DNA of 64,000 nt from a virus (taxonomy: Duplodnaviria > Caudoviricetes). The stretch lies in IMG/VR virus record IMGVR_UViG_3300037067_026010, positions 128,001 to 192,000 of that record. One strand, given 5' to 3'. The first letter of the stretch is position 1. Each line of letters starts with the position of its first letter. Made by a program: the position numbers and the translations under genes. Below are positions 8,880 to 60,375 of the stretch, in pieces. Below the pieces are notes generated by a model. That model worked only from the letters and a program-made list of their open reading frames with translations. It was not told the DNA's origin and ran no database searches.

Positions 8880-9467
8880 CTACGGCGCCGTTCTGTCGGG
8901 CAGCCGGATCACCCGCGTGCGCTCTTGGGGAGGCGGGCGTTGCGCCGTTTCGGCCTTTGCACTGGAAGACAGGCCCTGCTCGGAAGCAACGCGCAGGACA
9001 GCCACATGCAACTCGCGGAAAGGCACGCCCTCGTCGATCAACCAGTAGAGGAAGTAGTAAAGTATCTCCGACAGCGCAGCACGGGATATGGAACGGCACA
9101 GCGCGTGCAAGAGCGCCCCCGCGCGGGACAACACCCTTGGCACGTCGTCGCGATGATACCAACGGCGCGCAGTATCGATGAAGGTACGCGCCTGAGTCTG
9201 CGTAAATCGCCGCTGGCTTTCGCTACTTGAGGCACGCTGCTGGCTTTCGTCACCGGGTACAGTATATCGGATATACTGTTCGACCGGGACATCTGGGGTA
9301 TATAACGCCTGGAGTTCCTCAAACGTCGGTCTATTTAACGGTCCGTGCTGGCGTGCATCCGCGGCAAGGGCGTTAGCCATGTCTTCGTTGTGCGGCACGT
9401 TAATGTTAAACCAACCATGTGCGCCACCTATACGAGGACGCTGCGCGGGCGTTGCTGGATCGCTCAT
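8880..9467 (-). CDS. Hypothetical protein
   Basis: 195 aa from MSDPAT (ATGA overlap); C-terminal RVIRL. Confidence 0.7.
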   Translation of the reverse strand: MSDPATPAQRPRIGGAHGWFNINVPHNEDMANALAADARQHGPLNRPTFEELQALYTPDVPVEQYIRYTVPGDESQQRASSSESQRRFTQTQARTFIDTARRWYHRDDVPRVLSRAGALLHALCRSISRAALSEILYYFLYWLIDEGVPFRELHVAVLRVASEQGLSSSAKAETAQRPPPQERTRVIRLPDRTAP

Positions 9468-9814
9468 TTCGGTGCCTCGCCGCGTGTTATGGGAAAACTC
9501 ACACTTGGGACCACGCCGTGCTGGCACACACCGCTTTTGCCCTCGGTAATGGGCAAGGACCGGCCTTGCCCGGCGGTCATGCTCGGCATTGGCGCATTCG
9601 ACCACCGCAGCACCGTGCCGTCCTGCAGACACAGGCCTATGCCCGCGTCCAAATAGTCCACGCGGATCGGCTGCATCCCGCCAAGAATTGCTTGGCCGCA
9701 TTGCACGAAGCGATACATGGCCGCTAAATCCGCCTTCGGTGTGTCCTCCGGCAGCGTTTTGCACACTTCGGCATACACCCACGCCAATAAGTCTTGGGGA
9801 TTTTGCTCTGCCAT
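9464..9814 (-). CDS. Hypothetical protein
   Basis: 116 aa, AAGGA SD. Confidence 0.7.
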   Translation of the reverse strand: MAEQNPQDLLAWVYAEVCKTLPEDTPKADLAAMYRFVQCGQAILGGMQPIRVDYLDAGIGLCLQDGTVLRWSNAPMPSMTAGQGRSLPITEGKSGVCQHGVVPSVSFPITRGEAPK

Positions 9815-9854
9815 TTCAAGGTTCCTTTTTTTTTATGAAAATTTTGGTAACGGT

Positions 9855-10202
9855 TTACTTGGGCTCAACCTGGGACGGCCACGGTTCGTTTTGGAGAATC
9901 TGGAATCCGATCAATTCGAGCCAATCTCCTACCGTTTCTTTAGGGTCTGAAAATTTAGCGGCGATCGGGCCATATCCTTTTTTGGGGCCAGATTCGTAAG
10001 TGCCGCAGAGCCCGTTGAGAAGCCCGAGCAATCCCACGTGCCATCCCCCATGTTGTGTTATAACCTGGCAACTCGGATGGTCCGCAAGTTTCTCATTGCA
10101 CGGAACGCGATTGGCAAGCAATGCCCCGATGGCTGGCCGATCTAGTTCGCATAAATCATTCAAATACGCGACAATTTTTTCTGCGAGTTTTAAATCAACC
10201 AT
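9855..10202 (-). CDS. Hypothetical protein
   Basis: 115 aa, GGAGG SD. Confidence 0.8.
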   Translation of the reverse strand: MVDLKLAEKIVAYLNDLCELDRPAIGALLANRVPCNEKLADHPSCQVITQHGGWHVGLLGLLNGLCGTYESGPKKGYGPIAAKFSDPKETVGDWLELIGFQILQNEPWPSQVEPK

Positions 10203-10246
10203 TTTTCCTCCCGTTATAGTGCCCCAGGTAAATACCTGCCAAAATT

Positions 10247-10960: not shown

Positions 10961-10994
10961 GAGCAGGATCCTTCCGAAACGGGGTCAGAAACGC

Positions 10995-11318
10995 TTATTC
11001 TGCGGCGTCGCCGACCGGTGATTCGTCGTCCATTGGTTTCGCGATCGGTGACAAGACCGGCTTCGGCGTCTCGGCGGACGGTGCCGCGGCCTTCTGCGGT
11101 ACATTCTTGTACGTCTCTGCCATATCCGGTGCCTGCACTGGCGCCGGTTGCTCGCTCGGATTGGCTTGCGGAGGCACGATTGGTGCCACGGTAAGTGCTG
11201 GAGCGGGCACTGGCACGCTGTCCGGATCAGGAGCGCCTGCGGAAGCCGAAGGGTAGAACGTTCTGGTGCCAGGCGCTGCGCGCTTGGCTAGGCGTCGGCG
11301 GTATTCGATTTGGCTCAT
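10995..11318 (-). CDS. Pro/Ala-rich hypothetical protein
   Basis: 107 aa, AAGGAG SD. Confidence 0.7.
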   Translation of the reverse strand: MSQIEYRRRLAKRAAPGTRTFYPSASAGAPDPDSVPVPAPALTVAPIVPPQANPSEQPAPVQAPDMAETYKNVPQKAAAPSAETPKPVLSPIAKPMDDESPVGDAAE

Positions 11319-12441: not shown

Positions 12442-14439
12442 TTAGGCTGTTTCCTGGCGAGCGTCCTTGTCGCCTAGAGATATTACTCGCAAATGTCGTC
12501 CGTACCGCATTAAGTGCAGCATGTCGGCCGCTTGCTTCGGGTATTGCTGCTCCAGTAACTGGGATCCGGCGGCTTGCCGTGCTTGCTGCCGTTGGTCGTC
12601 CATAATGCTGCGCACCAGTGCCGCCAGTGCCGGCGCATCCTTCTTCAACCGAATCAGGAACGAATCCTTCTGCGATTCCGGCATGGACAGTGCCTGTGCA
12701 GCCAACGTTTGGGCCTTGCTCGTGAGTTCTTGCGGCGTCGTCGGTGCGGTCTCGCTATAATTCTGCGCCGCGAAGGCTTGCGCCGCTCCGGCCGGGCCTT
12801 GAGGCATGCCCATAGCCCCCATGGGGGCGCCGGCAGGTTGGCCAGCCCCTGGCATACCGCCGGGTATACCGCCTGGCATACCACCTGGCATGGCCGCGGC
12901 CGGCTGTGCCATTTGGTCGCCCTGTGCCGCTGCCTCCATCTCCTCCTGCTGCTTTTGTGCGGATTCGGCAGCGATGCGTTCTTCTTCCAGCTTGGTTCGC
13001 TCCTCGTCCAGGAAATCGAGCCCGACGCTGGTAAGACCGGTGCTTCTGGAAATCTGACCGCCCATCATCAACTGGAGTTTGGCCATCTGACGATTGAGGT
13101 CGTCGGCATGCGTAACGCGCACTAATCGGCAACTGACAGGTTCCCAGCTCATAATCTGCGATATACGGTCGACAAGTTGCCCAAGGAACCTATTCAGGTT
13201 ATGCACGAGGTGGCTCCAGTTCGCTTCGAAAAGTCGGAGCGCGGATGGTGCAGCCTGGGCCGACAAATTGCCCTTGTAAAGCTCTACGGGCACGTCACAA
13301 GCGTTTAATAGCATGTCCACGCCCAACTCCAGTAGATCTTTCGGCGCCAGCTGCGTCGCATCGCCACCCAGGGCCTTGTAATCGATCGGAAACGGCAGCA
13401 CGTTCCAGCGAGCAGGGTCGCGTCTGCGGGCCCGCAGCATGCCGTTTACCCGTGAGGTAAAGTTACCCATGTTCACGGACAGCACGGGATCGTTAATTTC
13501 ACCGCCTTGTCCCGGCCTCGGCATGGGTGTGAGGACACGGAACGGTATAACGTAGTCCAGGGCAATTGCCTCGTTGTAGCGATGCAATACCTGCACGTAC
13601 CACGCTTGCCGGAAATTCGTAAGGATACGCGAATATCCCCAACCACGGCTCCGAAGCCCGGCTGGCGGCTCCTCGCGCATGTGGTACACCACCTCTTTGT
13701 CGAATAGAAGATGCTGGTTCTGCCTTACCGCCTGTACGACGTCCCAGCTCGCGCGTTCGATATGATACAAATGCCCCTTCTTGAGCAATTGTCGATAGTC
13801 ATCCGGTATTTTCCAGATGTAGGCATTATCGTCCGTGTACGGATCATTGAGGATATCGATTTCGTGCGGTGACCATCTTTTGACTTTGATAGCGTTTTGC
13901 TCGCTGCTGCGCCGATCCACGTGCCGCCATATGCCTTGATAACCGCAGTTTAAACACCGGGCATTGAACTCGAAGTTCGACCAGGAAAAATGCATATGGG
14001 GATTGTTGAATATCCGTGACAAGGGCATCTCTACGCCGCAGTTTTTACAAGCCAAATGCCGCCTGAAGGGCAGTAGCACGCTGGTAAAAGAATTACCGTA
14101 GATCAGTAGGTCCAGGGCGACGATATGCAAAACGTTGCGAATGCCCAGTGTGTTGTCCAAGAAGTCTTTATACTTGTCGCGCTCCTCGCGGCCTACCTTG
14201 TCTACGCCGTTCGGCGCAGTAATTTCCACGTCAGTTAAAAAATAAGAGATGACGCGGCTCAGGGCAGCCCGGTACGGGCCCATCGCCATGGCGATATACT
14301 GGCACCATTGGAGGGCGTCCTGGTTGGTCTTCGGCATCGCGAGCGACGCCATATCCGCGAACGGACAAGGGAATAGCTCCGAATTACGTCCTGTAGTCCA
14401 AGCCGGGCTAATGCCCAGGGAATTGTCGGAGAGCGCCAA
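12442..14439 (-). CDS. Putative portal protein with Zn-ribbon insert
   Basis: 665 aa; DLLIYGNSF, WSPHEI, YHMRE...RGWGYS portal-like segments; CKNC/CLNC insert; low-complexity G/M/P/Q tail; AGGAGG SD + TTG. Confidence 0.6.
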   Translation of the reverse strand: MALSDNSLGISPAWTTGRNSELFPCPFADMASLAMPKTNQDALQWCQYIAMAMGPYRAALSRVISYFLTDVEITAPNGVDKVGREERDKYKDFLDNTLGIRNVLHIVALDLLIYGNSFTSVLLPFRRHLACKNCGVEMPLSRIFNNPHMHFSWSNFEFNARCLNCGYQGIWRHVDRRSSEQNAIKVKRWSPHEIDILNDPYTDDNAYIWKIPDDYRQLLKKGHLYHIERASWDVVQAVRQNQHLLFDKEVVYHMREEPPAGLRSRGWGYSRILTNFRQAWYVQVLHRYNEAIALDYVIPFRVLTPMPRPGQGGEINDPVLSVNMGNFTSRVNGMLRARRRDPARWNVLPFPIDYKALGGDATQLAPKDLLELGVDMLLNACDVPVELYKGNLSAQAAPSALRLFEANWSHLVHNLNRFLGQLVDRISQIMSWEPVSCRLVRVTHADDLNRQMAKLQLMMGGQISRSTGLTSVGLDFLDEERTKLEEERIAAESAQKQQEEMEAAAQGDQMAQPAAAMPGGMPGGIPGGMPGAGQPAGAPMGAMGMPQGPAGAAQAFAAQNYSETAPTTPQELTSKAQTLAAQALSMPESQKDSFLIRLKKDAPALAALVRSIMDDQRQQARQAAGSQLLEQQYPKQAADMLHLMRYGRHLRVISLGDKDARQETA

Positions 14440-21436: not shown

Positions 21437-22255
21437 TCAATCCTTTCCTGCGGCAGACAATGCCGAGATAAGCTGTCTATAGGTCTCAAGCAAATGCGAT
21501 GTACACACACAGTCGAACGCGGCCTGATGTGCGTGGGCCATATCCAGATGGTAACGCTCCGCTAAAGCATACTTCTGCGTGCAGTGCCGATCAAGTGACC
21601 AAGTCACACCGCGTATGCGCTGGGCGTTTATTCTGGCAAACCAGTCGTCCAGCGTTTCCGCCGCATACGGCGGATAATTCAACCCGGCCGCCTTCTCCAT
21701 GAGGCCGGTGTCCAGTACGGAGTTCGGACGCCACGGCAAACGGTAGCCGTCCATAAAGCGATCCATGTAACCGTTAAGCATCGCACGGTCAAACCTCCAA
21801 AGGTTATGGCCGACGATGCACACGCCGTTTTCTATGCAATTAAATAATCGATGCACGAGTTCCCCCAAGCCCTGCCAGGCCGCTACGCCCTCTTGGCAGA
21901 GCATGTCCCACGTAAAGCGATAATCCTTGCCCTGGCTCACCATGCCGTTTCGCGCCTTCTCCAGGCGCCGGCAGAAATCCTCCTTGCTTACGGGCATAGC
22001 CGACCAGTCCAGCAATTGATAACCGGAATCGGTAATCCGGCGCTGCCGTATCTCGGCCCAGCCGATTTCCACGATATAATCGCTATTCGGGTCGAATCCC
22101 GTCGTTTCAAAATCGACGACGAGATAGTCTTCCGGCAGCACCTGACGGCTGGCGAAGCCTCGCAGCATTTCAGAGGTGCCGCAGAACCACTCCGGCATCG
22201 GACGCTCCGCGTCATAACGCTGCCACGCCGATGCCAGGGCGTCGGCTAGGGTCAC
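21437..22255 (-). CDS. DEDDh 3'-5' exonuclease (DnaQ-like)
   Basis: VVDFETTG, VGHNLWRFD, AHQAAFD; start set at GTGA overlap. Confidence 0.9.
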   Translation of the reverse strand: MTLADALASAWQRYDAERPMPEWFCGTSEMLRGFASRQVLPEDYLVVDFETTGFDPNSDYIVEIGWAEIRQRRITDSGYQLLDWSAMPVSKEDFCRRLEKARNGMVSQGKDYRFTWDMLCQEGVAAWQGLGELVHRLFNCIENGVCIVGHNLWRFDRAMLNGYMDRFMDGYRLPWRPNSVLDTGLMEKAAGLNYPPYAAETLDDWFARINAQRIRGVTWSLDRHCTQKYALAERYHLDMAHAHQAAFDCVCTSHLLETYRQLISALSAAGKD

Positions 22256-23201: not shown

Positions 23202-23595
23202 GGCCTTCGCACCTTTCCGCCCGCAGTTGGTGATATTCTTGGATCGCCGCATCCCATCCCGCCTGCACCGGCACAGCATATGCTTGCCGGTTTTCTTCGG
23301 TGATGAGCAACCCTGTTTTGCAATACGCATAAACATATTCGGGGCGCATGCCGCTGCGCAACATGGCTTTCGCCGCCTCGCGGCGTGGGCCAAGTATGTC
23401 GTTTGCTACCGGTTGCGGCAGCGCTGCCTCCTGCCGTAAGCGCCGCGGGGCGCCGACTTTGCGCCGGCCGCGCGCAAGACAGCATGCTTTGAATTTCCGC
23501 TTGCTGCCGCAGGGGCAGGGGTCGTTTCTTTTTACGCGCGGCGGCCGACGATACGGTTCCGCGCCTTGGCGACGTACGCTATTCTGCATGTACAT
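23068..23595 (-). CDS. SEC-C motif protein
   Basis: RNDPCPCGSKRKFKACC. Confidence 0.8.
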   Translation of the reverse strand: MYMQNSVRRQGAEPYRRPPRVKRNDPCPCGSKRKFKACCLARGRRKVGAPRRLRQEAALPQPVANDILGPRREAAKAMLRSGMRPEYVYAYCKTGLLITEENRQAYAVPVQAGWDAAIQEYHQLRAERCEGHEQTTQSDQTGSETNEEAAQKNGVGAACEAGVRAGADALAAPAG

Positions 23596-24937
23596 GTTGT
23601 CCTCCGGTATCCGAACTTAAAACAATTATGGATTGCTCCCAAAATCTTTGAAGGGCGTACGTAGCACAACGGCTCTGAAACTGCGCGCCGGTTTCACCTT
23701 CGCCCTGTTGCACCAAACTGTCCCAGTCCTCGGGCCAGTCTTGCACGATGCGCTTGCACAGCTGATAGCGTCCTGCACTATCCAAACATTCCATTTTTAC
23801 AATACGGTCGATGCGTCCCGGTCTAGTTGTTGTACCATTATCCGCAATGCTGCCAAGTGCCGAGTCCAAGGCGTCAGGATTGTTCGTCGTCAGCATGAGC
23901 AAAATACCGGCAGTCGCCTCCACACCGTCTATACAATTCAGAAGGCAATCAAACGTCAGATGCCCTCCTGCGATGTTTTTACGCTGATGGAAAACAGCAT
24001 CAATATCCTCTATTAACGCCAAACAGGGCGTGTCGTGGCACATAGCCTGCCACTCCCGCTGTAGCTCACTATCGTAAAGCGTCGCCAAATGAAACACGTA
24101 GACCGGCAAATCCGTATCTTCCGCGATCGCCCGCACCACCGAGGTCTTGCCTGTGCCAGGCGGCCCGTGCCAGACACAACCGAAGCGCCACGGGATACCC
24201 CGTGCCCTATACCACTCCGCATTTTTGACCCAGTGGCGTATCTCATCATTTACGTTTTTCGCTTCTTCTGATAGGGCCAAATTATTTATGGCACAGCCCT
24301 GCGAGACGGGCACACCCAGTTCCGACGGCGACCATGCCAGCACGCGCAACCATTCCCACGGAGACAGGCCAGCCGATGGCCCCTCCCTATTATACAGCAC
24401 ACTAGGGTTCTGCATTTGGGTCTTGCCGTCGGTGCCGAATATCTGGCGCACTGTAAAGCGGCGACAAGTCGCCTGCACGGCAAAGCGGCTATTGTACATG
24501 CGCACCGCCTCGTTGACAAAACCATCCATAGACCATGTGCCACGTAGAAATCGCACGGTCAGCGCCGAGTCACTGCTAAATTGCGCAGTTGGTTTTTCGT
24601 TAGTATTTCCGCTTTGCAATGTGCCCAGCCATATAGGGCGCCAACCTTTCCAAAATAACTTGCCGCCACGTCCAACACCCTCGGACGCGATTAGCTGAAC
24701 GCGCTCTAATGGCCGCACCCAGACATACCACCCCATATATGACCGTTGACCGAGCGTGGATGCCAGGAGATGCCGCCAGCAATAGTGCTGCACGGCGGTA
24801 CTAACAGCCGGATCCAGCTCAAAAGATACTACCAACACACTGGACACGTATCCCCAGAAACCCCTGAAGTATCCCCATACGACAGCCAGTCCGCCTGCCA
24901 AGGTTGCTACGCCTGCCATAAGCCACGCTGTTCCCAT
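23579..24937 (-). CDS. Membrane-anchored AAA+ ATPase (BCS1-like)
   Basis: N-terminal hydrophobic helix; WYRARGIPWR, GPPGTGKT, LIEDID, LLNCIDG, TTN, RPGRID. Confidence 0.9.
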   Translation of the reverse strand: MGTAWLMAGVATLAGGLAVVWGYFRGFWGYVSSVLVVSFELDPAVSTAVQHYCWRHLLASTLGQRSYMGWYVWVRPLERVQLIASEGVGRGGKLFWKGWRPIWLGTLQSGNTNEKPTAQFSSDSALTVRFLRGTWSMDGFVNEAVRMYNSRFAVQATCRRFTVRQIFGTDGKTQMQNPSVLYNREGPSAGLSPWEWLRVLAWSPSELGVPVSQGCAINNLALSEEAKNVNDEIRHWVKNAEWYRARGIPWRFGCVWHGPPGTGKTSVVRAIAEDTDLPVYVFHLATLYDSELQREWQAMCHDTPCLALIEDIDAVFHQRKNIAGGHLTFDCLLNCIDGVEATAGILLMLTTNNPDALDSALGSIADNGTTTRPGRIDRIVKMECLDSAGRYQLCKRIVQDWPEDWDSLVQQGEGETGAQFQSRCATYALQRFWEQSIIVLSSDTGGQHVHAE

Positions 24938-28012: not shown

Positions 28013-28906
28013 TTAAACGGGATCGGCGGAAGGCATGCGAATACTCCGAGTATGCCGGCGTCCCGCGCCGGTCGCAGCTGCCTCGGCCTCTCGCCGTTGC
28101 AGCGTCGCCTCGTAACAGCTCGACGCGTGCGTGATCAGCTCGTCCAGCCGCCGCATATTTTCCGTGGCCTCATCGCGCATGCCCTCCATAGCAGCCCGCG
28201 CCACGCGCAGGTCTTCGATCATTTCCGGCGTCCACGTCTCGGGCGGCGCCGACATAATATCGTGGAACGCATTGATCTCCGTGCCATTCCAGGCTTGCCG
28301 CTGTTTTGCCAGCCACTTTTCGGTGTCGTCCCGAATTTGCCGTATTTTGCTCGGTACGGTGGGTGGTAATTTGAATGTGGGGCCATGCGGGGAAGTCACC
28401 GCCGGTCCGTAATGTTCCTTGATGCGCCGATGCAGCTCCGGCGGTGCCCATAATCCGCGAACCGCGCGTTTGGCCCACATACGCCGTTTGTCCGGCGTTT
28501 TGAGAATCAGCAGATAAGAGACGTGCCCCCAGTGCAACTGAAAGCCGGTCTTGTCGCAATGCAACTCCAGGAGTTCTTGCAGGGCTTCTTTCGTGTAGGC
28601 CTGCGTAAATGACGCCGCTTTACGCAACTGCCGCGCGTGTATTGCCAAGGCCTGCTCCAACAGCCGCATGGCACTTTCGCCGTATTTGTCGGGGTCATCC
28701 TGCACTTCCGTGCACAGCTTGCCTAGGTCGTAGTAAAACCGCAGCGTCGTTTGCCGCCCTTCGTCCAATTGCCGCTGGATGATGTTGAACTTCTTGCGAA
28801 GCTCCTTGTTCATCATCTGCAGCGCCTCCTCGCGGGCTTGCACGATTTGCGCGGCATCCAAGGTGGCGCGGCGCTGCGCCTGCGCAGCGGGCGATATACG
28901 TACCAT
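28013..28906 (-). CDS. Hypothetical protein (helical; weakly DUF1016 N-terminal-like)
   Basis: 297 aa; YYDLGK...KYGE, LHWGHVSYLL; C-terminal RSIRM. Confidence 0.75.
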   Translation of the reverse strand: MVRISPAAQAQRRATLDAAQIVQAREEALQMMNKELRKKFNIIQRQLDEGRQTTLRFYYDLGKLCTEVQDDPDKYGESAMRLLEQALAIHARQLRKAASFTQAYTKEALQELLELHCDKTGFQLHWGHVSYLLILKTPDKRRMWAKRAVRGLWAPPELHRRIKEHYGPAVTSPHGPTFKLPPTVPSKIRQIRDDTEKWLAKQRQAWNGTEINAFHDIMSAPPETWTPEMIEDLRVARAAMEGMRDEATENMRRLDELITHASSCYEATLQRREAEAAATGAGRRHTRSIRMPSADPV

Positions 28907-40213: not shown

Positions 40214-41886
40214 ACCTCTATATTCGTACGGGTTGGTAACGCTACAGATCTTGTACGCGCGGCTTGATTCAGCCCCGTTGGGCCTGCGGAAGCACCACGG
40301 GCTCCGGTTGCACCGAGAACATGCGCCAGGTCCGCCCTGGATACGATACGCGCACCGGAGCCATCCACAGCCATCGTATCCGACATATCTTCGATACGTG
40401 CGAATTGCTCATGGATGCTGAACAGCAGTGGCGCAATGCGTTCCACAGGCTTGTTTCGGACCTTCGAAAAATTCATAAGACGACAACCGGAATTCCTGTC
40501 CGGGTTTCCGATGCACATGCACAGCGATAAATTGTCGGCGAAGGATTTGGCTTCGGCGGCGTCATTGTGGTGCAACAGTTTTGCAGGACTTAAATTGCAA
40601 GCAGCACCCGCGATTTGATGCAATATCCAAACCGTGGTATTAAGTGGGATGGCAATCTGCAACCGACAGGCCTCGCCAAATGCCCGCAACAGGTGCCGCA
40701 ACTCGCTATCCGGCTTGCCCATAGCCGTACGGTACCGATCGCAAGCCACGCCAGCCCAATCTATGATCACCGCACGCACGCCACGGCCGGTCCGTTGCTG
40801 GTGCATCGTCGCCATTTGCGCTATTTCGGGCACATAGCCCTGCCCTACGCCAGGTACCTCGTCTCCCACCATATCAAAGCCGACGACAGAGGAATTCAGC
40901 CACTCCATGCCCAAAACGTATCTATCGAACTCCGAGGGCAGTTCGCCCGACGCCGTAGCGCACATTGCTTGCTCGTAGGGCAGACGGATGCGCGACAAAT
41001 CGTTTACGTCGCGCAGCACTTCCAAAGTCTCACGCGGAATTCCGAACGCGGCCGCCTGGAACCGCGGACGCAGCCTACGCACCGTTTCCTCGAAAGAGAA
41101 ATATAAGACCTGCTCTCCGCGATGCCCCTCTTCCGTGAACGCCCGCCGGCCGAGGGTAACTGCGACGTGCACACCCAGCGTCGTTTTACCGCCGCCGGTA
41201 ACGCCGATGACGCCGACGACATCCTGTCGCTGCTGGCCGGTAAAGCGTTCGTCAAACCATGCCAACCCCGTCGGCACATAGTCGGCAGCCGGCACAAGCT
41301 CCGTACCGGGCGCCGGCGCAAGGTCCACTGCAGGCAGCACGCTCCCGCTGCGCAAGCGTTGCTCACGCTGAATAAGCGATTGCAGGGTATCCGCCACGGT
41401 GCTCGGGTAACTCGCAGCGCCGAAGCCACTGGCAACCAGGTGGCGCAACGGCTCCAGCACCGTCCTCTCGTAAAGAAAACGCTGAGCCATCTCCCGTGCC
41501 GCAAGCACCACGCCTTCGGTCAGATGTTCGACCGGCGTCATGTAGATGTTCCATACGATGCCGTCGGCGTCGCGTGAAACCAGCGCCTGGTATTGTTCCT
41601 GCGAAACCGCAGCTGTGCCGTCATTCAACAACCCGTTCATTACGTGCCAAACGGTGTCGTGGCTAGCGTCACGGTATTGCTGGTACGCCAGATGTATCCC
41701 TTGCCAAAGCAACCGCCAATGCGCTTCCGCTGCCGGATTGAAATGTTCGGCGCGCAATTGCTCGTGCCACTCCTGGTAGAACGCCGGGAAGCGTGCAAGG
41801 GCCAAGAACAGAATATACAGATCGTCTTCCGTTACCGGTTGCTGGCGCGGCACCGCGTCCGCCACATGGTGCGACCCATTCGACAT
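40210..41886 (-). CDS. DnaB-like replicative helicase
   Basis: PTG, GVTGGGKTT, YFSFEE, VIIDW, LHQ, KVRN. Confidence 0.85.
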   Translation of the reverse strand: MSNGSHHVADAVPRQQPVTEDDLYILFLALARFPAFYQEWHEQLRAEHFNPAAEAHWRLLWQGIHLAYQQYRDASHDTVWHVMNGLLNDGTAAVSQEQYQALVSRDADGIVWNIYMTPVEHLTEGVVLAAREMAQRFLYERTVLEPLRHLVASGFGAASYPSTVADTLQSLIQREQRLRSGSVLPAVDLAPAPGTELVPAADYVPTGLAWFDERFTGQQRQDVVGVIGVTGGGKTTLGVHVAVTLGRRAFTEEGHRGEQVLYFSFEETVRRLRPRFQAAAFGIPRETLEVLRDVNDLSRIRLPYEQAMCATASGELPSEFDRYVLGMEWLNSSVVGFDMVGDEVPGVGQGYVPEIAQMATMHQQRTGRGVRAVIIDWAGVACDRYRTAMGKPDSELRHLLRAFGEACRLQIAIPLNTTVWILHQIAGAACNLSPAKLLHHNDAAEAKSFADNLSLCMCIGNPDRNSGCRLMNFSKVRNKPVERIAPLLFSIHEQFARIEDMSDTMAVDGSGARIVSRADLAHVLGATGARGASAGPTGLNQAARTRSVALPTRTNIEV

Positions 41887-41908
41887 GATTTTAATCCCTT
41901 CCGGCTCT

Positions 41909-42598
41909 CTATGTGAGCATTTGCGCCCGCAGCGCCTCTCCCTCCAGCCGCAACTCTTGAGGAATCCGATCTCCCCAAGCCGCGTCATAGACTGTTTTCT
42001 GAAATACGTAGTCCGCCAATGCCTTCGCATGGAAGGCCGCGGCGATATCAGGAAACCCGTACTTTACGGCGACACAATATCGCCAAATCGGTGACGCTGA
42101 GACCGTACCGATATTGGTAAGCGCAGAACGCATCGCTCGGTCGAACGACCAGTGCAGTCTATCCACGAGCGGCCTGAGCTCTCCCTCCAGCGACGACAAT
42201 GCAGTATCCCAGCTGCGCTGCAACTCCATCGGACGATCGCAGATATACGCGCGATAGCGTTCCGTCGCCAAGCCTGAACGCAGTGCCGTCGGCCATGGCA
42301 CCTGACGCACGGTAGCGTGTAGGAATTGTGCCTTGAGGTACTCTAGCGGATCTGCTCCCAGGCTCACGATATGCTGTGCCAGCGCAGGCCAGCAGTTCGA
42401 GTGAGACCGTCCGTGGCTATCCACCCCGCCATCCCAAGCTGGTATCGGGCGCGTGCCGTATGCCGGATCGCCCTTGATGAGCTGCGCTAGGCTGAAAAAC
42501 GCTGCGCGCACCGTCTCTGCCAACGCAGCAAGTCTAACGTCCGCTGCGGCAGGCGCCGGTGTTGCATCCGATAGTATTACGCTCCGCTGATACTCCAT
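41909..42598 (-). CDS. Hypothetical protein in replication operon
   Basis: 229 aa. Confidence 0.8.
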   Translation of the reverse strand: MEYQRSVILSDATPAPAAADVRLAALAETVRAAFFSLAQLIKGDPAYGTRPIPAWDGGVDSHGRSHSNCWPALAQHIVSLGADPLEYLKAQFLHATVRQVPWPTALRSGLATERYRAYICDRPMELQRSWDTALSSLEGELRPLVDRLHWSFDRAMRSALTNIGTVSASPIWRYCVAVKYGFPDIAAAFHAKALADYVFQKTVYDAAWGDRIPQELRLEGEALRAQMLT

Positions 42599-45780: not shown

Positions 45781-47928
45781 TCACAGTTGTATGACCGCGT
45801 CAAAAAGCGGGGCAAGTTCGTCTTCGTGCGTAACAATGATACATTGTAAGCCGCTACTCGACGCCAGCTGCCGCAATTGCGTCAATACCGGTGCAAATCC
45901 GCGGATATGATGCTTGTCCAAATATGCCGTAGGTTCGTCCAGCATAAGCAACCTGACCTGCGGCGCCAATCGTAAGTTGAGCGCCAAGCGTATTGCGCAG
46001 GCTAGTACCACCTTCTGACCGTGTGATAAGCGCTTTCCGGACTGCACGCGGCCGTCTTGGAAATGCGCGCAAAATGACATATCGTCGCTGACAGTCACAT
46101 AAAAGTCGGTCTGAAACAAGCTTAACGTTTCATTGGTCGCGACGGTCAGCCGTTGCAAGTTCTGCTGTATAACGTACCTTGGCAATGCATCCCAGTGCAC
46201 AATGTCACGCCACCGCGTGATACGCTGAAGCCACTCGCGGCTGCGCCGGCTCTCCTGCAGTTGCTCCTGAAGTCTGGCAACGTCCGCTTCGAGTTGCAAC
46301 CGTAGTGCCTGCTGCTGCACCAACTCTTGGTCAAGCTCCTGACGCTGAACCAGTTGCCCTGTGCGTATGTCGCAGCGCTCCCGCGCCGCCTGGGCATGTT
46401 CATCGACTATTCGCCCCTGGGCGAGCTGCTGCGACAGTTGCTGTAGACGCAGCTTGCTGGCGTCGTATCTGGAGCGAAGCGTGGCCGTTGCCACGCAGCA
46501 CGACTGCCAGTACGCCCTCCGCCGCTGCACCTCTGCAGTACGACCTGCGACTTCTTGGATTTGCGCTGTCAATTGCTCCGGCACGACATCCGGCATGTCC
46601 AACTGTTGCCATTGCTCCATCTGCACGCGCAAATCCGCGATCTTCGCCTGTAGCGCGGCACAATTGCCGTCGTACTTTGCCAGGGCTGTTTCGTAAGCCT
46701 CGCAGGACGCCTGCTCGCGGCGCAAGGCCTCCAATCTCGCCCGCAGCTCCGGCAACACTGTCCGGGCCCGATCGATCTCCGCCTGCAATCCGCCTACAAT
46801 GGGTGTATGACAGGTCGGACATTCGGCGCGGCCTGTTTGGGCCAGGTCCCGCAACATTTGCTCATACCGCGCTGCCCGAGTACTCAACGTCGTTATCTCT
46901 GTATCGGGATCGGTGCGCACGGTCGCATAGCCTTGCGGCGGTAACGGCCGCTGGAGTTGCTGCAGCTCCACTTCTGCCGTATGTAGCGCAGTGGCAACCC
47001 GGTCCCTCGTACGGACTATCGCCGCTTGCTTTTCCATATCCGCCAGCAATTGTTTGGCACGCTCGGCTGCCGGACGGCACGCCTCTAGGCGCTGTTCGCT
47101 GTCAGTCATATCTTGCTGCGCCGCTGCCTCAACGCCGGCAGCGACGTGGCCCTGTGCCTCCAGCTCCGCCAGCAGTTGTACTAAATGCTGCGCGTCCGCC
47201 AGCTCCGCTTGCTGCTGCGAGTATAACAGCAGGATACCCTCGTCTTCCCGTTGTGCCGCAACCAGCTCTACCAGCGGCTGCAACGCCTGGGCACGCTGCC
47301 GTACTGCCTCTTCCGCTTCTTGGGCAGCCGCCAGCTGCCGGCGCAAGGTATCCAGGTCGCCGGCAACTTCCGGCACGACAATCGCGCTACCGTGCGCTCC
47401 GAGCACCTTATATGCGGCCTCGGCGGCATCTGTGCGAAACAGCCGCTGGAAGGCCGCCGCGCGTTCGCCCTGCGTTGCGGACAGTACGCCAAAAATGTCT
47501 TCCTGCGCTACCAAAGCCACCTGCTGCAGCGTATCGAATGACACGTCCAGGATCGCCTCGATCCGCGCATTTACCTTCTTGTCGTCGCGCACCGTCTCCA
47601 GTTTTTTGTTGTTGAGGCGGTCGCACAGTCCCAATGTGGATTTGCGCGTATCGGGGCGCAGATGCCGCGTGACCGTTGCTCGGATATCGCCGTGCGTGAA
47701 CACGATCTTGCCGAACGCCGCCTCTTCCGCGGCAGCGTATTGCGAAACGTTTTCGTCCTTCGTACCGCTGTTGGCGTTCGCGCCGGTCAACAGCCAGCGT
47801 ATGCCGTTGAAAAAGTTCGATTTTCCAGAGCCGTTTGCGCCAAGCACGGCGGTCAGCCCGCGCTGGAAATTTTCGACGCGATGGTGGTGGTTGCAAAAAT
47901 TCACAAGCTCGATGGATTCTAAGAACAT
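45781..47928 (-). CDS. sbcC: SbcC/Rad50 ATPase
   Basis: GANGSGKS, Q-loop, CPTC zinc hook, LSHGQ, LDEPT, VTH. Confidence 0.95.
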   Translation of the reverse strand: MFLESIELVNFCNHHHRVENFQRGLTAVLGANGSGKSNFFNGIRWLLTGANANSGTKDENVSQYAAAEEAAFGKIVFTHGDIRATVTRHLRPDTRKSTLGLCDRLNNKKLETVRDDKKVNARIEAILDVSFDTLQQVALVAQEDIFGVLSATQGERAAAFQRLFRTDAAEAAYKVLGAHGSAIVVPEVAGDLDTLRRQLAAAQEAEEAVRQRAQALQPLVELVAAQREDEGILLLYSQQQAELADAQHLVQLLAELEAQGHVAAGVEAAAQQDMTDSEQRLEACRPAAERAKQLLADMEKQAAIVRTRDRVATALHTAEVELQQLQRPLPPQGYATVRTDPDTEITTLSTRAARYEQMLRDLAQTGRAECPTCHTPIVGGLQAEIDRARTVLPELRARLEALRREQASCEAYETALAKYDGNCAALQAKIADLRVQMEQWQQLDMPDVVPEQLTAQIQEVAGRTAEVQRRRAYWQSCCVATATLRSRYDASKLRLQQLSQQLAQGRIVDEHAQAARERCDIRTGQLVQRQELDQELVQQQALRLQLEADVARLQEQLQESRRSREWLQRITRWRDIVHWDALPRYVIQQNLQRLTVATNETLSLFQTDFYVTVSDDMSFCAHFQDGRVQSGKRLSHGQKVVLACAIRLALNLRLAPQVRLLMLDEPTAYLDKHHIRGFAPVLTQLRQLASSSGLQCIIVTHEDELAPLFDAVIQL

Positions 47929-48815
47929 TCGATATCGCCTCCACGCGCTAAAGTAATACAACGACTCATGCGCAAATGCTGCGGCTCCTGGACCATTTCC
48001 GTATCACCGCTGTCCACCCATTCTCGGTAGTGCATCCGCAGTGCCCGCATCGGCGGTATTTTAAATTTTATAGGGCAACCTTCCCAGAGCACCGGGGGTA
48101 GTGGCGCCTCCGTAGGCGTAATCTTGGCATCGGCATATATCGCCTGGCAGCACTGACATCTCCCTTGGCTGCGACATGTACCTCGGCCAATACCGCCACC
48201 GCATACGCTACAATAATGCGCCCACGGCGATGGCGCAAATGTCGTCCCGTACTCGGAAACTGCCACCGGGTTCCAGGCATAGCCGCTGACGGCATCGTGC
48301 AATAACTCCGCCGCTGGAGCACGCTCCGCTGCGCTAATGGTCTTATAGTCAGCCTTCAGCCACGCCGCGCCAACCGCCACGCGGGCCGCTATCTCGCCCG
48401 GCTGCCACAGGCAGAAACCTAGATGATATTTGCCGGTACGTGTACGCAACATTTGCGGCCACTCCTTCTCTGCGAGCCGCAAGGCCTCGGCACCGTTTCG
48501 CCAGAGCCGGACATCGCTGCCGAACCCCTCCTGCGGTGCGGCCGTTTGCACCGCGAAGGCGTAGCTTAGCTGTACGCCGGACGCCGACGTCCGCAACGAA
48601 AAAATATGCAAGCATCCGCGCACATATAGCGGCGGCCCCGCGAAATACAGCACCGTTGCCCCTTTCATGGCTCGCATGTATCGCAGTGTCCCGCGTATGC
48701 TTCCTGAGCCAAAGCCAGGTGCCACAGTTTGAATAACGTCAACCGACGCCGGCAGTGCCCGCTTCTGCAGTTCGGCTACTGCCTTTGCCGTGCGCGCATG
48801 CAGCTCTTTAGTCAT
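47919..48815 (-). CDS. Hypothetical protein inserted between sbcD and sbcC
   Basis: 298 aa, CSVC/CQCC; C-terminal RCITL. Confidence 0.75.
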   Translation of the reverse strand: MTKELHARTAKAVAELQKRALPASVDVIQTVAPGFGSGSIRGTLRYMRAMKGATVLYFAGPPLYVRGCLHIFSLRTSASGVQLSYAFAVQTAAPQEGFGSDVRLWRNGAEALRLAEKEWPQMLRTRTGKYHLGFCLWQPGEIAARVAVGAAWLKADYKTISAAERAPAAELLHDAVSGYAWNPVAVSEYGTTFAPSPWAHYCSVCGGGIGRGTCRSQGRCQCCQAIYADAKITPTEAPLPPVLWEGCPIKFKIPPMRALRMHYREWVDSGDTEMVQEPQHLRMSRCITLARGGDIECS

Positions 48816-53033: not shown

Positions 53034-53966
53034 TTAGGACACACGTCGCCTACGGAACCGACCGTAGGTGGCCAACATCCGTGCACCGCGGAAAAGCTGC
53101 CCATCGATTTCCGTCGCAGCCCGTGCGGCAAGCAATTCCGCCGTCATGCGCACATCCCCGCTAAGTAACTGCCTCGGATAGCGCAACGTACGAATTACCG
53201 CCTGGCATACTACGGAACGACTCGGTCGCACGTGTCGGCGGTATTTACCGCTCTCTAACGTTAATAGGGCCTTTGCCGGTATCTGGAATAACTGGCGGTG
53301 GGTGAAGCGCCAACCACTGTGGCAAGCTTCCACTGTCGTAAAAAACAAAGCGCCGCATACGGTCCCGCTGCGCACCAGCTTACGCATAACTACTGCACGT
53401 TGCTGGCAAACACTGGTCATCAGGTATCGTACCCATGCCGCCTCCGTAGGGTATCGGGAGCGTTCCTCGGCGTGCGCAGGTAGCCACGGATACACCACCA
53501 CCCTGCGGCGCTCTACAAGGTGGTATGCAAATTCCGCCGTGTCGCTTAACCGGATTGCACGCATCGGTCGGCCATATTCGTCGATAGCCTCGGAGCTTCC
53601 CGGTTTGGGGAAGGCATGATCCACGCTCTCCCACAATTCCGAGGCTCTGCGAGCATAACAGAAAGGGCACAAGTAATCCAGGCGGCAACATCGTGTTAAC
53701 GGCATGGCAAATGCAAAGGTAGGGCAGCAGTTGCGCAAATACGTATTACACATGCGCGTCCCCGGTGGGTGCCATCCGCACGACATCAACGCCGACACTC
53801 GCGCGCGCCAAATCGTAAGTAAGCGGGTGGTACGGCGGCGGACACCTGCATCGTTTGTTGCAGGCCGGCCGGTCAACGGATAGAGCACCGCTGCCCGCTG
53901 CACCCGTGCTGCATAGGTATGCGGCACCCAGTCCAACTTGAACGCGATATCCGTTTTTCTGGCCAT
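53034..53966 (-). CDS. Hypothetical protein resembling degenerate HUH rolling-circle Rep
   Basis: CRLDYLCPFC, GALFFTTVE...WRFTHRQL, RYPR, RMLATYGRFR. Confidence 0.5.
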   Translation of the reverse strand: MARKTDIAFKLDWVPHTYAARVQRAAVLYPLTGRPATNDAGVRRRTTRLLTIWRARVSALMSCGWHPPGTRMCNTYLRNCCPTFAFAMPLTRCCRLDYLCPFCYARRASELWESVDHAFPKPGSSEAIDEYGRPMRAIRLSDTAEFAYHLVERRRVVVYPWLPAHAEERSRYPTEAAWVRYLMTSVCQQRAVVMRKLVRSGTVCGALFFTTVEACHSGWRFTHRQLFQIPAKALLTLESGKYRRHVRPSRSVVCQAVIRTLRYPRQLLSGDVRMTAELLAARAATEIDGQLFRGARMLATYGRFRRRRVS

Positions 53967-57146: not shown

Positions 57147-58131
57147 GCGTCGTTTCTCCCATGACAGCATTCCAGTTGTCTAATGGTATCCATCCCTTTA
57201 AATCGGCTTCCTGCATCGCCAGGTAGAGTGGCTTGGCCGCGATGCCCAATTCTTCCGGCATGCGATGCGCCACCCAGTAAATCTGCGCCTCCGTAATCGC
57301 GTCCGGCGTCGTGCCCACCACGTCGATAAGGTATTGTATCGCGGCCGCCTCCTTCAAGGCCAACGGCGTAACGCAGGGTTGCTTTGCCCTGCCGAGCACC
57401 TCCTCGGGACCGGGGGGCGGCTCGTCTCCAAGCAGCATCCGATTCAGTTTGTTCCCGGCAAGGTCATACTGTTCGTATGCCGTTCCGACATACAGGTAGG
57501 GACGCACGGCCTCGAAGACCCAGCGCGTCGGATCCGCGATCCGCCCGTCTGCAAGCACGATCCAGCCATGGTGCGACGACACTCTCGTTGCGAACATGCT
57601 CGTCGGAGCGATCGGCCCATGGTAGTGCCCATAACCTACGTGCGCACCGGGGAACAGGCCGGCTTCCACAGCACGGCGTGCTATTTCATAACAGCGCCCC
57701 GGCCAGTCCGCGACGGCGACGCCAATAGCTGTGGCAATGTCGCGCAGCTTCGGCATAGGCGCTTGAGGCGCTTTCGTCTCAGTCGCTGCCCGCTGATAAG
57801 CCGCCGTACGCCCGTTTCCACGGCGCAAGAGCTTCTGGGCGCGATAGACCTGCCGCAACACGTGCAGCAACGCCATGTGCTGCGCATCGCGTATAACCGC
57901 GGCAGACGGCTGCTTGCCCGCGGGCAACGGGGGCCACCGATGCTTTTGATAATAGGAGGCCACGGCCTCCGCAATGTTGATGCTCGGCGAGAGTTGCTTA
58001 AACAAAGTTGCATAATTCACGTAATGATCTGCGGGAACCGCAGCCACCACCTCCCCTTGCGAAATCCAATGATGCTTGGATTCGGCCATAGCCTTGTACT
58101 CCTTTAAGGGCAAGTGAACAAACACGCTCAA
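57103..58131 (-). CDS. Hypothetical protein with possible Cys-His-Asp (transglutaminase-like) triad
   Basis: WPGRCYE, HHGWI, IADPT. Confidence 0.6.
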   Translation of the reverse strand: MSVFVHLPLKEYKAMAESKHHWISQGEVVAAVPADHYVNYATLFKQLSPSINIAEAVASYYQKHRWPPLPAGKQPSAAVIRDAQHMALLHVLRQVYRAQKLLRRGNGRTAAYQRAATETKAPQAPMPKLRDIATAIGVAVADWPGRCYEIARRAVEAGLFPGAHVGYGHYHGPIAPTSMFATRVSSHHGWIVLADGRIADPTRWVFEAVRPYLYVGTAYEQYDLAGNKLNRMLLGDEPPPGPEEVLGRAKQPCVTPLALKEAAAIQYLIDVVGTTPDAITEAQIYWVAHRMPEELGIAAKPLYLAMQEADLKGWIPLDNWNAVMGETTHDAGNHRAKPVGRK

Positions 58132-58895
58132 ATACGGATAGCCCGCTGCGGCCTACCCCAGCATGCACCCGTCTCCTCGGCCAGATGCCGCTCGCAGTCT
58201 TCTAACGTCGTCTCCGCCCGGCGTAGCTGATCCTCCAGTTCGACCACGGCTTGGGCATTTACGATTGGGCTGTCCAGAAGCACTCCTGCCTCCACAAGCT
58301 CCGTAAGTTTGATATACCAGCTCTGCAAGTCCTTTAGCGCTTCGCGCGCCTTGTCCACGTGATCCACGGGCGTGTCGATGTTACCCCAGGAGTAGCACCG
58401 CTGTGGCCCTGCCAGCTCCCGCACATAGACTTCGGGACGATATTGCTTGTTGCATAACCGCTGAATGGCGGTAGCCCTGGGCACCCCGCCGTCCGGCAAG
58501 GCCATATACGCGGACACCACTGCCTCCCACGGATTGGCGGCGCCTTGCAGGCGCAGTTCCAGCTGCTGCCCATAATCCGCATCCTCGTCAAAACGAAAAG
58601 CAACTGCGTAGCCGTACTGCGGCCAAATGGGGTCGGTCTGCACCTGAATCTCGGATACGCAGCCGCGGTAAGGGCTGGGCCATTCGATATCGCAGCGGCT
58701 GCAATGCAGCCTGACTTGCCCGGCCCGCCACACTGGGGCACCTGCCACACGTGCCGCGCCCGAGATCTGCGGTTTATCGTCATGCCACACCAGTTCCGAA
58801 TAAACGTGGCGCAGCTCCAGAATACCGTCCGCCGGATACCCGCAAAATAAGCACCGCGGATAGCCAAACCAAGTATCGGTACAGATTTGTTGCAT
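58128..58895 (-). CDS. Zn-ribbon domain protein
   Basis: CLFCG...CSRC; ends RAIRI. Confidence 0.75.
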   Translation of the reverse strand: MQQICTDTWFGYPRCLFCGYPADGILELRHVYSELVWHDDKPQISGAARVAGAPVWRAGQVRLHCSRCDIEWPSPYRGCVSEIQVQTDPIWPQYGYAVAFRFDEDADYGQQLELRLQGAANPWEAVVSAYMALPDGGVPRATAIQRLCNKQYRPEVYVRELAGPQRCYSWGNIDTPVDHVDKAREALKDLQSWYIKLTELVEAGVLLDSPIVNAQAVVELEDQLRRAETTLEDCERHLAEETGACWGRPQRAIRI

Positions 58896-58903
58896 AGGGT
58901 CTC

Positions 58904-59332
58904 CTAGCCAAGAATCCCGGCCTGCAGCCGGGCTTCTGCCGTGCGTATTGGCGGGTCCAGCACCCTGGTCTCGCCATTTGTCAGTATCGCGATGTTAACG
59001 ATTTGCAGATGCGCTACGCCATCCACGACCCGCACATGCGGATCACTGAGGGCACGCTTATACGTCTGCCGCCAAGCACGCGGCAACCGTTCTGGATCGT
59101 ACGTCAGACTGGCAACCTGCTTGTGGCTTATGCCCTGCTGGAGCAAGTCCACCCACACCTCAAGCGCCGCGAGGCATTCGAGGGACTGCCTATATTTTGC
59201 CTTCAAGGCTTTAACGACCTCGACCGCGCGTTCGTGCGTCGCCATCAACTCTGCACTAGATTCTTGCGGAGTCTCGGCAACAGGCGGCCCCTCGACAGGG
59301 TGTGTATCCGGATTTTCAGTAGTCATCATCAT
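58904..59332 (-). CDS. Hypothetical protein
   Basis: 142 aa, AAGGAG SD. Confidence 0.75.
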   Translation of the reverse strand: MMMTTENPDTHPVEGPPVAETPQESSAELMATHERAVEVVKALKAKYRQSLECLAALEVWVDLLQQGISHKQVASLTYDPERLPRAWRQTYKRALSDPHVRVVDGVAHLQIVNIAILTNGETRVLDPPIRTAEARLQAGILG

Positions 59333-59558
59333 CTCCTTCCGCGTCCTCCTCTGCCCGATGTCGCGCCCTGGCCTGAAGCTTTAAATGCGTCTGCCAACGC
59401 TGGTCCGCCTCCTTGTGGCCGCGCGTTACTGCTTGTTTTAACAATTGCGCCCCCAAGGTGTTCATCGATCGCTCCTTCGCATATGCCAACCGTTTAAACT
59501 CCTTATAAAGCTCGATCGGCAGGCGCAGCGTGAGCACTGCCTGCTGTTTATCCGCCAT
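59316..59558 (-). CDS. Arc-like ribbon-helix-helix regulator
   Basis: LTLRLPIELYKEFKRLAYAKERSMN. Confidence 0.85.
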   Translation of the reverse strand: MADKQQAVLTLRLPIELYKEFKRLAYAKERSMNTLGAQLLKQAVTRGHKEADQRWQTHLKLQARARHRAEEDAEGDDDDY

Positions 59559-60375
59559 CTGTACGCGTTCCTTTCTGGCTCGATGTCTTCGCTAAGGTGT
59601 TCTCTAGGGTAATAGCCCGCGTGCGATCTGCGGCATGTTTCCGCTGATTCCACGCCGCGATAGACGCGGCACGCCACGCCTCCAGTTCTGCTTTTGCGGA
59701 CAGTAACCTTTCGCGAGTTATCCCGAACGATGCCATACCTTGGCCGGCAGGCGTCGTAAGCGAGGCTTGTGCCGAGGCCAAGGCCCGCGCAAGTTTTGCA
59801 TATTGGGCACTTTGTTGGGCCGGCGTGCCTATCTGGGAAGGTGCAACCGGCACGAGACCGTCGACGCGCCAGACGCTGATATTTGCCTCGGCTAGGCAGG
59901 TTTCCACAGCGGCAAAGGCCGCGGCGTTATCACCGGCGAATGACTGCAGGGCGTGGGTAAGCAGCGCCTCCAACGGGCTTATTGCCTTTATACGGCGCAA
60001 GGGGTCTGCCGTGCCATTGCCCCATATTGCAGAAACCAACCACTCAGTCGGGGAAGGTGCAGCATCCGCAGTATGAATAGCATAAGCCGGAGTCGCAGAG
60101 ACAACGGTATCAGCGGGCTCGTCGATATACGTCGTCCCCCACTGCCGATAGCATTGTCCGCACACCAATATGCAGTCATCTTGGTCAATTGGCTCTACCG
60201 TTTCTTGCGACTCCCAGAATACTTCCGTTTCCCCGGAGTGTTCGGCATTCATCTCCTCGTCAAAGGTGAGGCAGGCCATGCCGCATAGTGTCTCCAGCGT
60301 ACCGCCAGCTGGTGCACCACAGAACGGGCAGTGTGGGTCACGAAATTGCATCAAGTGTCTCCATAAGCTTGCCAT
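59548..60375 (-). CDS. Zn-ribbon domain protein (N-terminus paralogous to 58128..58895)
   Basis: CPFCG...CGQC; C-terminal RAITL. Confidence 0.75.
   Translation of the reverse strand: MASLWRHLMQFRDPHCPFCGAPAGGTLETLCGMACLTFDEEMNAEHSGETEVFWESQETVEPIDQDDCILVCGQCYRQWGTTYIDEPADTVVSATPAYAIHTADAAPSPTEWLVSAIWGNGTADPLRRIKAISPLEALLTHALQSFAGDNAAAFAAVETCLAEANISVWRVDGLVPVAPSQIGTPAQQSAQYAKLARALASAQASLTTPAGQGMASFGITRERLLSAKAELEAWRAASIAAWNQRKHAADRTRAITLENTLAKTSSQKGTRTDGG

Follow-up and report, generated by a model that had tools for sequence, protein, structure and literature searches.

The stretch of DNA analysed here comprises bases 128,001-192,000 of the 210,569-bp virus record IMGVR_UViG_3300037067_026010, which belongs to an uncultured phage; these 64,000 nucleotides are called the window, and the whole genome is called G000. 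About 250 genes were called in G000, and they lie on the minus strand almost throughout. The recognised genes of the window encode a UvsX-like recombinase, a DNA polymerase with a LAGLIDADG insert, a primase, a DnaB-like ATPase, a superfamily 2 (SF2) helicase and SbcC/SbcD-like proteins, and the major head protein, the sheath and the large terminase map outside it. Pfam, PHROGs and NCBIfam are blank for most G000 proteins, including nearly all of the conserved ones. The subject of this report is a short peptide, Arg-x-Ile/Val-x-Leu, that about a dozen unrelated proteins of the phage, among them the portal and several DNA-replication proteins, carry in a disordered tail or loop. Six whole genomes were compared, consisting of G000 and five relatives from IMG/VR (G001-G005).

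Copies of the peptide in the window

The motif of G000 can be written [R]-x(1,2)-R-x-[IV]-x-[LIM], with an arginine at position 0, isoleucine or valine at +2, leucine, isoleucine or methionine at +4, a basic residue at -2 or -3, and often an aspartate at +5. The core in the relatives is R-x-h-x-h (h, hydrophobic), often followed by Asp. An earlier sequence-only reading of the window had listed nine such peptides, and all nine were found at the positions claimed and in the open reading frames (ORFs) named (window coordinates):

7814-7828, plus strand: N-terminal RRITI (FQRRITIPG), in the start region of gene 7754-8413
8901-8915, minus strand: RVIRL core (QERTRVIRLPD), 6 residues from the end of ORF 8880-9782
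12475-12489, minus strand: RVISL core (GRHLRVISLGD), in the disordered C-terminal tail of the portal gene 12442-14439, 10 residues from the end
28034-28048, minus strand: RSIRM core (RRHTRSIRMPS), in the tail of a DUF1016_N-like protein (PF17761), gene 28013-28906, 6 residues from the end
40237-40251, minus strand: RSVAL core (AARTRSVALPT), in the tail of the DnaB-like helicase/ATPase, gene 40210-42030, 8 residues from the end
47949-47963, minus strand: RCITL core (LRMSRCITLAR), in the tail of a 298-residue protein, gene 47919-48815, between the SbcC-like and SbcD-like genes, 9 residues from the end
53547-53561, minus strand: internal RAIRL core (GRPMRAIRLSD), at residue 136 of 310 in a Cys-rich (CPFC) protein, gene 53034-53966, where it occupies a gap-rich loop
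58131-58145, minus strand: RAIRI followed by the stop (GRPQRAIRI), at the extreme C-terminus of the 255-residue ORFan 58128-58895
59605-59619, minus strand: RAITL core (ADRTRAITLEN), 18 residues from the end of the 275-residue ORFan 59548-60375

The same reading had placed the motif within about 25 residues of the C-terminus, which describes the seven tail copies and is not a rule, given the conserved internal and N-terminal copies; one of the nine lies at the extreme C-terminus. It had also taken the signal to be one of protein, and the codons agree: they vary freely, arginine being encoded by CGG, CGA, CGT or AGA and the last motif residue by CTG, CTA, TTA, ATG or ATT, with no nucleotide likeness beyond what the residues impose. 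The signal therefore sits at the protein level, and a DNA-level element, such as a promoter or an RNA element in the gene ends, is ruled out by the varying codons and the lack of a nucleotide consensus. The residues that flank the motif are variable and gap-rich in alignments, and residues 617-636 of the portal tail have predicted local distance difference test (pLDDT) values below 50 in the AlphaFold2 model. A tenth copy, RTLRVITLP in the plus-strand ORF 21851-22249, was rejected as a spurious chance motif because strand-aware rescoring shows that the opposite strand is the one that codes there.

The identities of the carriers are established to different degrees. Sequence profiles give no match for gene 12442-14439, and its designation as the portal was upheld by its fold: all top Foldseek matches of the AlphaFold2 model are portal chains, including those of T4, T7, lambda, phiKZ and HFTV1 (probability 1.0, E 7e-7 to 2e-4, template-modelling (TM) score 0.3-0.5). 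The label DnaB holds as far as a match to DnaB-like or RecA-like ATPases, with no more specific identity than that. The Cys-rich protein with the internal copy has conserved Cys pairs (C-x-N-C ... C-P-F-C-x-A-R) and gave no family match; the pairs resemble the N-terminal zinc-binding region of rolling-circle Rep proteins. In the DUF1016_N-like family (28013-28906; homologues P0122-P0160) the motif is followed by a second tail element, a run of three to five Arg/Lys residues near the extreme end (KRRRRS, PRRRRA). The coding signal in the region 8880-9814 changes frame near 9460, from the frame of ORF 9464-9814 to that of ORF 8880-9782, so that clear coding in the latter frame is limited to its C-terminal ~190 residues (below ~9460); the change may correspond to two genes, with an internal start of the second, or to a frameshift.

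Enrichment, conservation and lineage-specific forms

The loose pattern R.[IV].[LIM] is mildly enriched in the last 25 residues of G000 proteins (12 tails versus 7.9 expected, p ~0.09). The extended pattern, R-x(1,2)-R-x-[IV]-x-[LIM], is present in 11 tails with 1.47 +/- 1.19 expected, and none of 2000 composition-matched tail shuffles reaches 11. Because the extended word was derived from G000 data, independent tests were sought. A weight matrix built from the portal tails of other phages alone was scanned over the non-portal proteins of the six genomes, and matched 5 tails in G000 (1.2 expected), 13 in G001 (0.8), 13 in G003 (0.5) and 5 in G002 (0.6), with nothing above expectation in G004 and G005. 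Likewise, in an unbiased count of about 8000 words of the form a.b.c in the last 15 residues, R.I.L ranks first in G001 (13 versus 0.77, p 2.5e-12) and in G003 (10 versus 0.66, p 2.4e-9). The sequence-only reading had named enrichment over an Arg-rich background as a check, and the shuffles (11 tails versus ~1.5), the portal matrix and the R.I.L counts all return it. The top tail word of G000 is T.E.K, which comes from an array of small Gln-rich proteins ending ...LTVE(D/G)K (window ~600-4650) and is unrelated to the peptide.

Conservation in orthologues, the other check that had been proposed, was found for the portal, the DUF1016_N-like protein and the internal loop, and likewise for the DUF3150-like tails and the N-terminal copy. 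As judged from the alignments, the motif is kept as a conserved island within variable, disordered tails. The portal has more than 1000 relatives at ~60% identity, on contigs of 200-230 kb, and 60 of the 119 other homologues, among the matches listed, end in R-x-I-x-L(D) after a linker that varies in length and sequence; the portals of a sister clade end in ...QQFGQGQPAG, without the motif. The tail of the DUF1016_N-like protein aligns solely at [RK]-x-x-R-x-[IL]-x-[LM], with R287 as the sole invariant tail column, and an exhaustive profile search shows that G-[RK]-x-x-R-x-[IV]-[DE]-L is kept in most of the ~60 nearest representatives, which are mutually less than 50% identical. The protein encoded at 47919-48815 retains the motif as RNIQL in G001 and RVVEL in G003. 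The internal copy in the Cys-rich protein is kept in its orthologues, the G002 version being RSLDM, and the orthologues of gene 7754-8413 start with MTMRDRIIDLD (G003), MTRHMDMH (G002) and MTSDKRHIQF (G001). These conserved loop and N-terminal copies imply that the motif does not need a free C-terminus. The copy in the DnaB-like protein is a lineage-specific gain: the orthologues in G001-G004 lack it, and that of G005 has the variant RRIMPV. ORFs 8880, 58128 and 59548 have no orthologue in the five relatives. A further tagged protein of ~200 residues was noted in G001 (60919-61560; L089:919-1560) and G003 (68555-69136). It ends in ...NDIPF, the classic C-terminal tip of bacterial single-stranded DNA-binding proteins (SSBs), and has an R-x-V-x-V tag about 12 residues upstream; Pfam detects no SSB domain in it, and no counterpart was found in G000.

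Comparison of the tails within each genome indicates that each phage lineage has its own flavour of the tag, common to all its carriers. The G000 flavour has an R-T-R prefix, with four copies in called genes plus that of ORF 8880 and 0-1 elsewhere. In G001 and G003 it is [RK]-[ED]-x-R-x-I-x-L followed by Asp, with 18 and 7 copies, respectively, and 0-2 elsewhere. In G002, eight proteins have R-x-[ILM]-D-[MF]; the portal and the DUF1016_N-like protein are among them, as are the carriers of the internal loop copy and of the N-terminal copy. R-x-V-D-V marks both the portal and twelve DUF3150-like lineages in the G004 clade, and E-R-D-I-E-L is found on three proteins of locus L223. A change of flavour throughout a proteome points to a single co-evolving, phage-encoded partner, and is not expected of a conserved host hub. 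A common reader of the tag very probably exists. The peptide also has the properties of a short linear motif: it is 3-10 residues long with few fixed positions, it lies in a disordered setting, it is conserved in orthologues while its flanks diverge, and it has originated independently in unrelated proteins. The proposal of the sequence-only reading, a docking peptide for one hub, thus stands as regards a shared protein-level motif and a single partner, which enrichment, conservation and the lineage flavours support, and falls as regards its first candidate for the hub, a sliding clamp.

The Cdc48-like ATPase module and the putative reader

The motif is most constant on a Cdc48-like AAA+ ATPase of two domains and on the DUF3150-like protein that neighbours it. 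They belong to a module just past the window (genome 207801-210569, or 79801-82569 on the window scale; loci L140, L142 and L143) that consists of six genes, encoding the AAA+ ATPase (PF00004), DUF1257 and DUF2997 proteins (Pfam matches PF06868 and PF11211), a protein of ~113 residues ending ...WLxEHxIPTP, the DUF3150-like protein, and a protein of ~150 residues, OG-G. The gene order is shared by all six genomes and by 80 diverse IMG/VR loci, in which the identity of the ATPase falls to 25%. In these 80 phage loci a relaxed form of the motif ends 37 of the 44 distinct DUF3150-like tails, 23 of 61 ATPase tails and 6 of 7 OG-G tails, and is found on 1 of 42 DUF1257 tails, none of 47 DUF2997 tails and 53 of 620 other ORFs. 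The ATPase ends in RSVQVD in G001 and RSVEID in G003, and the DUF3150-like protein of G000 ends in GRQLRYLNI. In the sister clade with the tagless portal (G005), RR-h-h-x-M is still present on the DUF3150-like proteins, and this combination, together with the tail counts of the module, suggests that the module proteins are the older carriers and that the portal and the replication proteins acquired the tag later. The ATPase gene of G000 is cut at the end of the linear record, which is therefore probably circularly permuted.

The AlphaFold2 model of the ATPase (pLDDT 89) matches Cdc48/p97, Drg1, NVL, Rix7 and VAT over both AAA domains, D1 and D2. The model consists of D1-D2 only, without a separate N-domain, and the last ~20 residues are free, with pLDDT values of ~50-58. 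Searches for solved structures or structural look-alikes of DUF1257 and DUF2997 gave nothing useful, and relatives of the DUF3150-like protein in cultured phages or plasmids returned no match. No peptidase partner adjoining the ATPase was found in the six genomes or the 80 loci. A literature search found no paper on the motif, or on the function of DUF1257, DUF2997, DUF3150 or Ycf46.

Cellular homologues of the ATPase share 31-36% identity with it and occur mostly in cyanobacteria, and also in myxobacteria, planctomycetes and archaea. They end in R-x(0,2)-h-[DE]-h-COOH at 8 of the 11 loci with adjacent DUF1257/DUF2997 genes versus none of the 69 loci without them (Fisher p 5.7e-9), a count of related genomes that amounts to about five independent lineages. 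The ATPase tail is thus tied to the presence of DUF1257/DUF2997.

We favour the reading that the peptide is a docking tag of the Cdc48-like ATPase module, with the DUF1257/DUF2997 pair or the ATPase ring as the likeliest reader, and hold the chances of this reading to be evenly balanced. The peptide would be the lineage's version of a signature C-terminal peptide of a Cdc48-like (D1-D2, classic-clade, Ycf46-like) AAA+ ATPase, which in the branch that includes G000 may have been copied onto the portal, the DUF1016_N-like, DnaB-like, SbcCD-linked and Cys-rich Rep-like proteins, and several ORFans. The alternating R, I/V and L side chains would point to the same side of an extended strand and fit a groove of the common phage-encoded reader, so that the carriers could be tethered to, or handed to, one protein-remodelling machine. 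With a portal, a hexameric helicase-like ATPase or a Rep-like protein as client, such a machine might, as a guess, assemble or disassemble rings or bring its clients to one site. A bolder version, to which we give rather little credence, takes the tag as the substrate-selection code of a Cdc48-like unfoldase: DUF1257/DUF2997 would read it and pass a defined set of DNA enzymes that form rings, along with the portal, to the ATPase, which would assemble them, take them apart or move them into a phage compartment, and the code would also account for the role of the Ycf46/Ycf35-type proteins of cyanobacteria and plastids.

Several points weigh against a tag for this module. The analysis shows that the peptide is present, enriched, kept in orthologues, disordered, covariant within lineages and linked with the module; that it binds, what it binds and how the clients are acted on are inferred. 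The ATPase bears the tag itself, which fits a client of another hub equally with a part of the reader complex. Its copy in G000 is degenerate (RAIQT, in RTRAIQTDGG), and in the G004 and G005 clades the ATPase tails are unlike the other tails of the same genome. The AlphaFold2 monomers leave the tails of the portal and of the ATPase undocked on their own proteins and give no support to either as reader, binding in trans being beyond a monomer model. Finally, the extended pattern was partly derived from the data on which it was scored, its independent checks being the portal-only matrix and the relatives, and the cellular association reduces to the five or so lineages given above.

Other candidate readers were tried and rejected. 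Docking of the portal tail on the portal, and of the ATPase tail on D1-D2, is not seen in the models, in which both tails are free. A beta-clamp (PF00712) was not found in five genomes in which the control families matched, the gp45-type and PCNA-type families not being part of the search, and the tails of the DNA polymerases have no motif. Hsp20/alpha-crystallin domains (PF00011) were not found in G000-G004, with controls matched in 13 of 14 cases. A tubulin hub was rejected for the lack of tubulin in G000, G004 and G005. A phyletic search for a reader gene limited to tagged genomes was not clean, as the sister clade G005 has the variant tag.

Some other genes of these phages concern the same subjects. 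A tubulin homologue (PF00091, E ~1e-11 to 1e-12) is encoded 1-3 kb downstream of the portal gene in G001 (5677-6840, L086), in G002 (121529-122689, L100) and in the P0002 contig, which is the closest relative. G000 encodes a 2537-residue protein (genome 58116-65729) whose C-terminal ending is common with Arash gp206 (L141:30093-34670), a virion-detected 'RNA polymerase beta' protein, and an Rpb1 domain 5 match is also present in G000; phiKZ-like multisubunit RNA polymerases are therefore probable in the clade. A second classic-clade AAA ATPase (PF00004), at window 23579-24937, gives weak matches in PHROG and NCBIfam to the Walker A regions of clamp loaders/RFC; it is untagged, and its conservation in the relatives is weak. 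Sugar enzymes are many for a phage, and include five family 2 glycosyltransferases (GT2), a GT1, a GT9 heptosyltransferase, and PfkB and cytidylyltransferase (HldE-like) domains. Further domains of G000 are MT-A70, ferritin, radical SAM, ParB_N, SNase and CAP. The DNA polymerase (window 34089-38453, 1454 residues) and the large terminase (genome 196547-200890, plus strand, 1447 residues) both match LAGLIDADG homing-endonuclease families, and their unusual length together with these matches indicates that they probably contain inteins.

The alternative that survives best, although we regard it as unlikely, places the reader outside the module, in a scaffold of the replication or packaging factory or in an import factor of a phage compartment, with the ATPase and its neighbours merely the oldest clients. 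It agrees with the tag on the ATPase itself and with the fact that most of the identifiable carriers handle DNA (the DnaB-like ATPase, the Rep-like Cys-rich protein, the DUF1016_N-like and SbcCD-linked proteins, and the SSB-like protein with the DIPF tail in G001 and G003). The tubulin that adjoins the portal in relatives and the large RNA-polymerase-like proteins of the clade, which resemble those in Arash virions, are also in keeping with such a hub. However, none is recognisable in genomes whose conserved proteins are almost all blank in the three domain databases, tubulin is missing from three genomes that are nevertheless tagged (G000, G004 and G005), and the link between the cellular ATPase tail and adjacent DUF1257/DUF2997 genes would be left unexplained.

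An improbable alternative is that the peptide acts as a degron or timer, through which a host or phage AAA+ protease clears unassembled portal and early replication proteins by a contact of the ClpX N-domain type or the adaptor type. A disordered, basic-hydrophobic terminal peptide does resemble the known ClpX-directed tails, such as LRVVK of SspB and RRKKAI of MuA, and the ATPase of the module is of the unfoldase type. The motif is also found, however, in an internal loop and at N-termini, its flavours differ among close phages in a way that is not expected for a conserved host protease, and the ATPase has no peptidase partner beside it.

Less probable still is targeting to the capsid interior, in which binding of the tag to the scaffold or coat protein would bring the other carriers into the head, from which they would be injected. 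In solved portal structures the portal C-termini lie inside the capsid; the tagged protein matches portals in fold, so that its C-terminus would face the procapsid interior, and the genes just downstream of the G001 portal are tagged. Arash, a distant relative in culture, packages more than 100 proteins, including helicases (PMC10585845). On the other hand, the sister clade tags its module proteins and has a portal without the tag, the large RNA-polymerase-like protein is untagged although its Arash homologue is detected in virions, and cellular ATPase homologues have the tail in cells that have no capsid; for these three reasons capsid loading is disfavoured. In addition, no structural-module protein has a free tag. 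In Arash, none of the proteins encoded in the 50 kb examined bears a tag of this kind, so that its virion proteome is uninformative about such loading.

We consider it very unlikely that the motif is a site at which an enzyme modifies the arginine, by ADP-ribosylation or glycosylation, instead of a docking peptide. The arginine at position 0 is invariant in the aligned tails, and G000 is rich in glycosyltransferases and has HldE-like enzymes, but no transferase is linked to the carriers, and three residues on the same face, along with the ATPase ending in cells without these transferases, suit docking better. Chance or Arg-rich tail composition is already refuted for the family as a whole and conceivable for single ORFan copies only: the loose five-residue pattern is not significant in G000 and three window carriers are ORFans without orthologues, whereas the composition-matched shuffles never reach the observed count and the independent genomes, orthologue conservation and lineage covariation all support the motif.

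If the peptide is indeed a docking handle of the ATPase module, one five-residue peptide defines the client list of a protein-remodelling machine in many large phages, and cyanobacteria, myxobacteria, planctomycetes and archaea have a simpler form of the same machine. A module that resists annotation (AAA+, DUF1257, DUF2997, DUF3150) would become directly testable, and the client list, with its portal, helicase, Rep-like and nuclease-like proteins, would hint at the targets of the machine. The tag would serve as a practical aid for annotating ORFans in these phages, and possibly as a portable recruiting tag. New in this analysis are the conservation of internal and N-terminal copies, the inclusion of the portal among the clients, the flavours of the lineages, and the link of the ATPase tail with adjacent DUF1257/DUF2997 genes (8/11 versus 0/69 loci).

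Comparison with known systems

Short peptides that address a common partner are known from several systems, and each of those compared here departs from the phage tag in a defining feature. Small heat-shock proteins have an anchor, (R/K)-x-I-x-I/V, at the C-terminus, whose binding site is the beta4/beta8 groove of the alpha-crystallin domain. The residue pattern is nearly the same, and binding in the heat-shock proteins occurs by strand insertion; G000-G004, by contrast, have no Hsp20/alpha-crystallin domain.

In T4, the clamp-binding tails of gp43, gp33 and gp55 dock on gp45, and the corresponding motif for the bacterial beta-clamp is QL[SD]LF. As in the phages studied here, functionally different phage proteins share a terminal peptide for one hub, which in T4 is ring-shaped. 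The phage tag differs in sequence, in the lack of a detectable beta-clamp domain, in the phage DNA polymerase, which has no motif, and in being attached to the portal and to many ORFans.

Peptides that bind accessory domains of AAA+ proteins, such as LRVVK of SspB on the ClpX N-domain, and the SHP box, VIM and VBM on the p97 N-domain, are similar in that short extended or basic-hydrophobic peptides on adaptors or clients address an AAA+ machine. In contrast to ClpX and p97, the model of the phage ATPase has no separate N-domain, and its small partners DUF1257 and DUF2997 have no known fold or function.

The nearest parallel in principle is provided by the HbYX/GQYL tails, C-terminal peptides that dock proteasome activators, including PAN/Rpt, archaeal Cdc48, Blm10/PA200, and mycobacterial Mpa and Bpa. 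These tails need a free C-terminus and a penultimate Tyr, whereas the phage motif is free of Tyr, is usually located 0-18 residues before the end and has further copies in a loop and at N-termini; no 20S-like or other chambered peptidase was seen for the phage ATPase. What the two have in common is a short tail present on an AAA+ unfoldase and on unrelated proteins and directed at one partner site, and the phage ATPase is itself Cdc48-like by fold.

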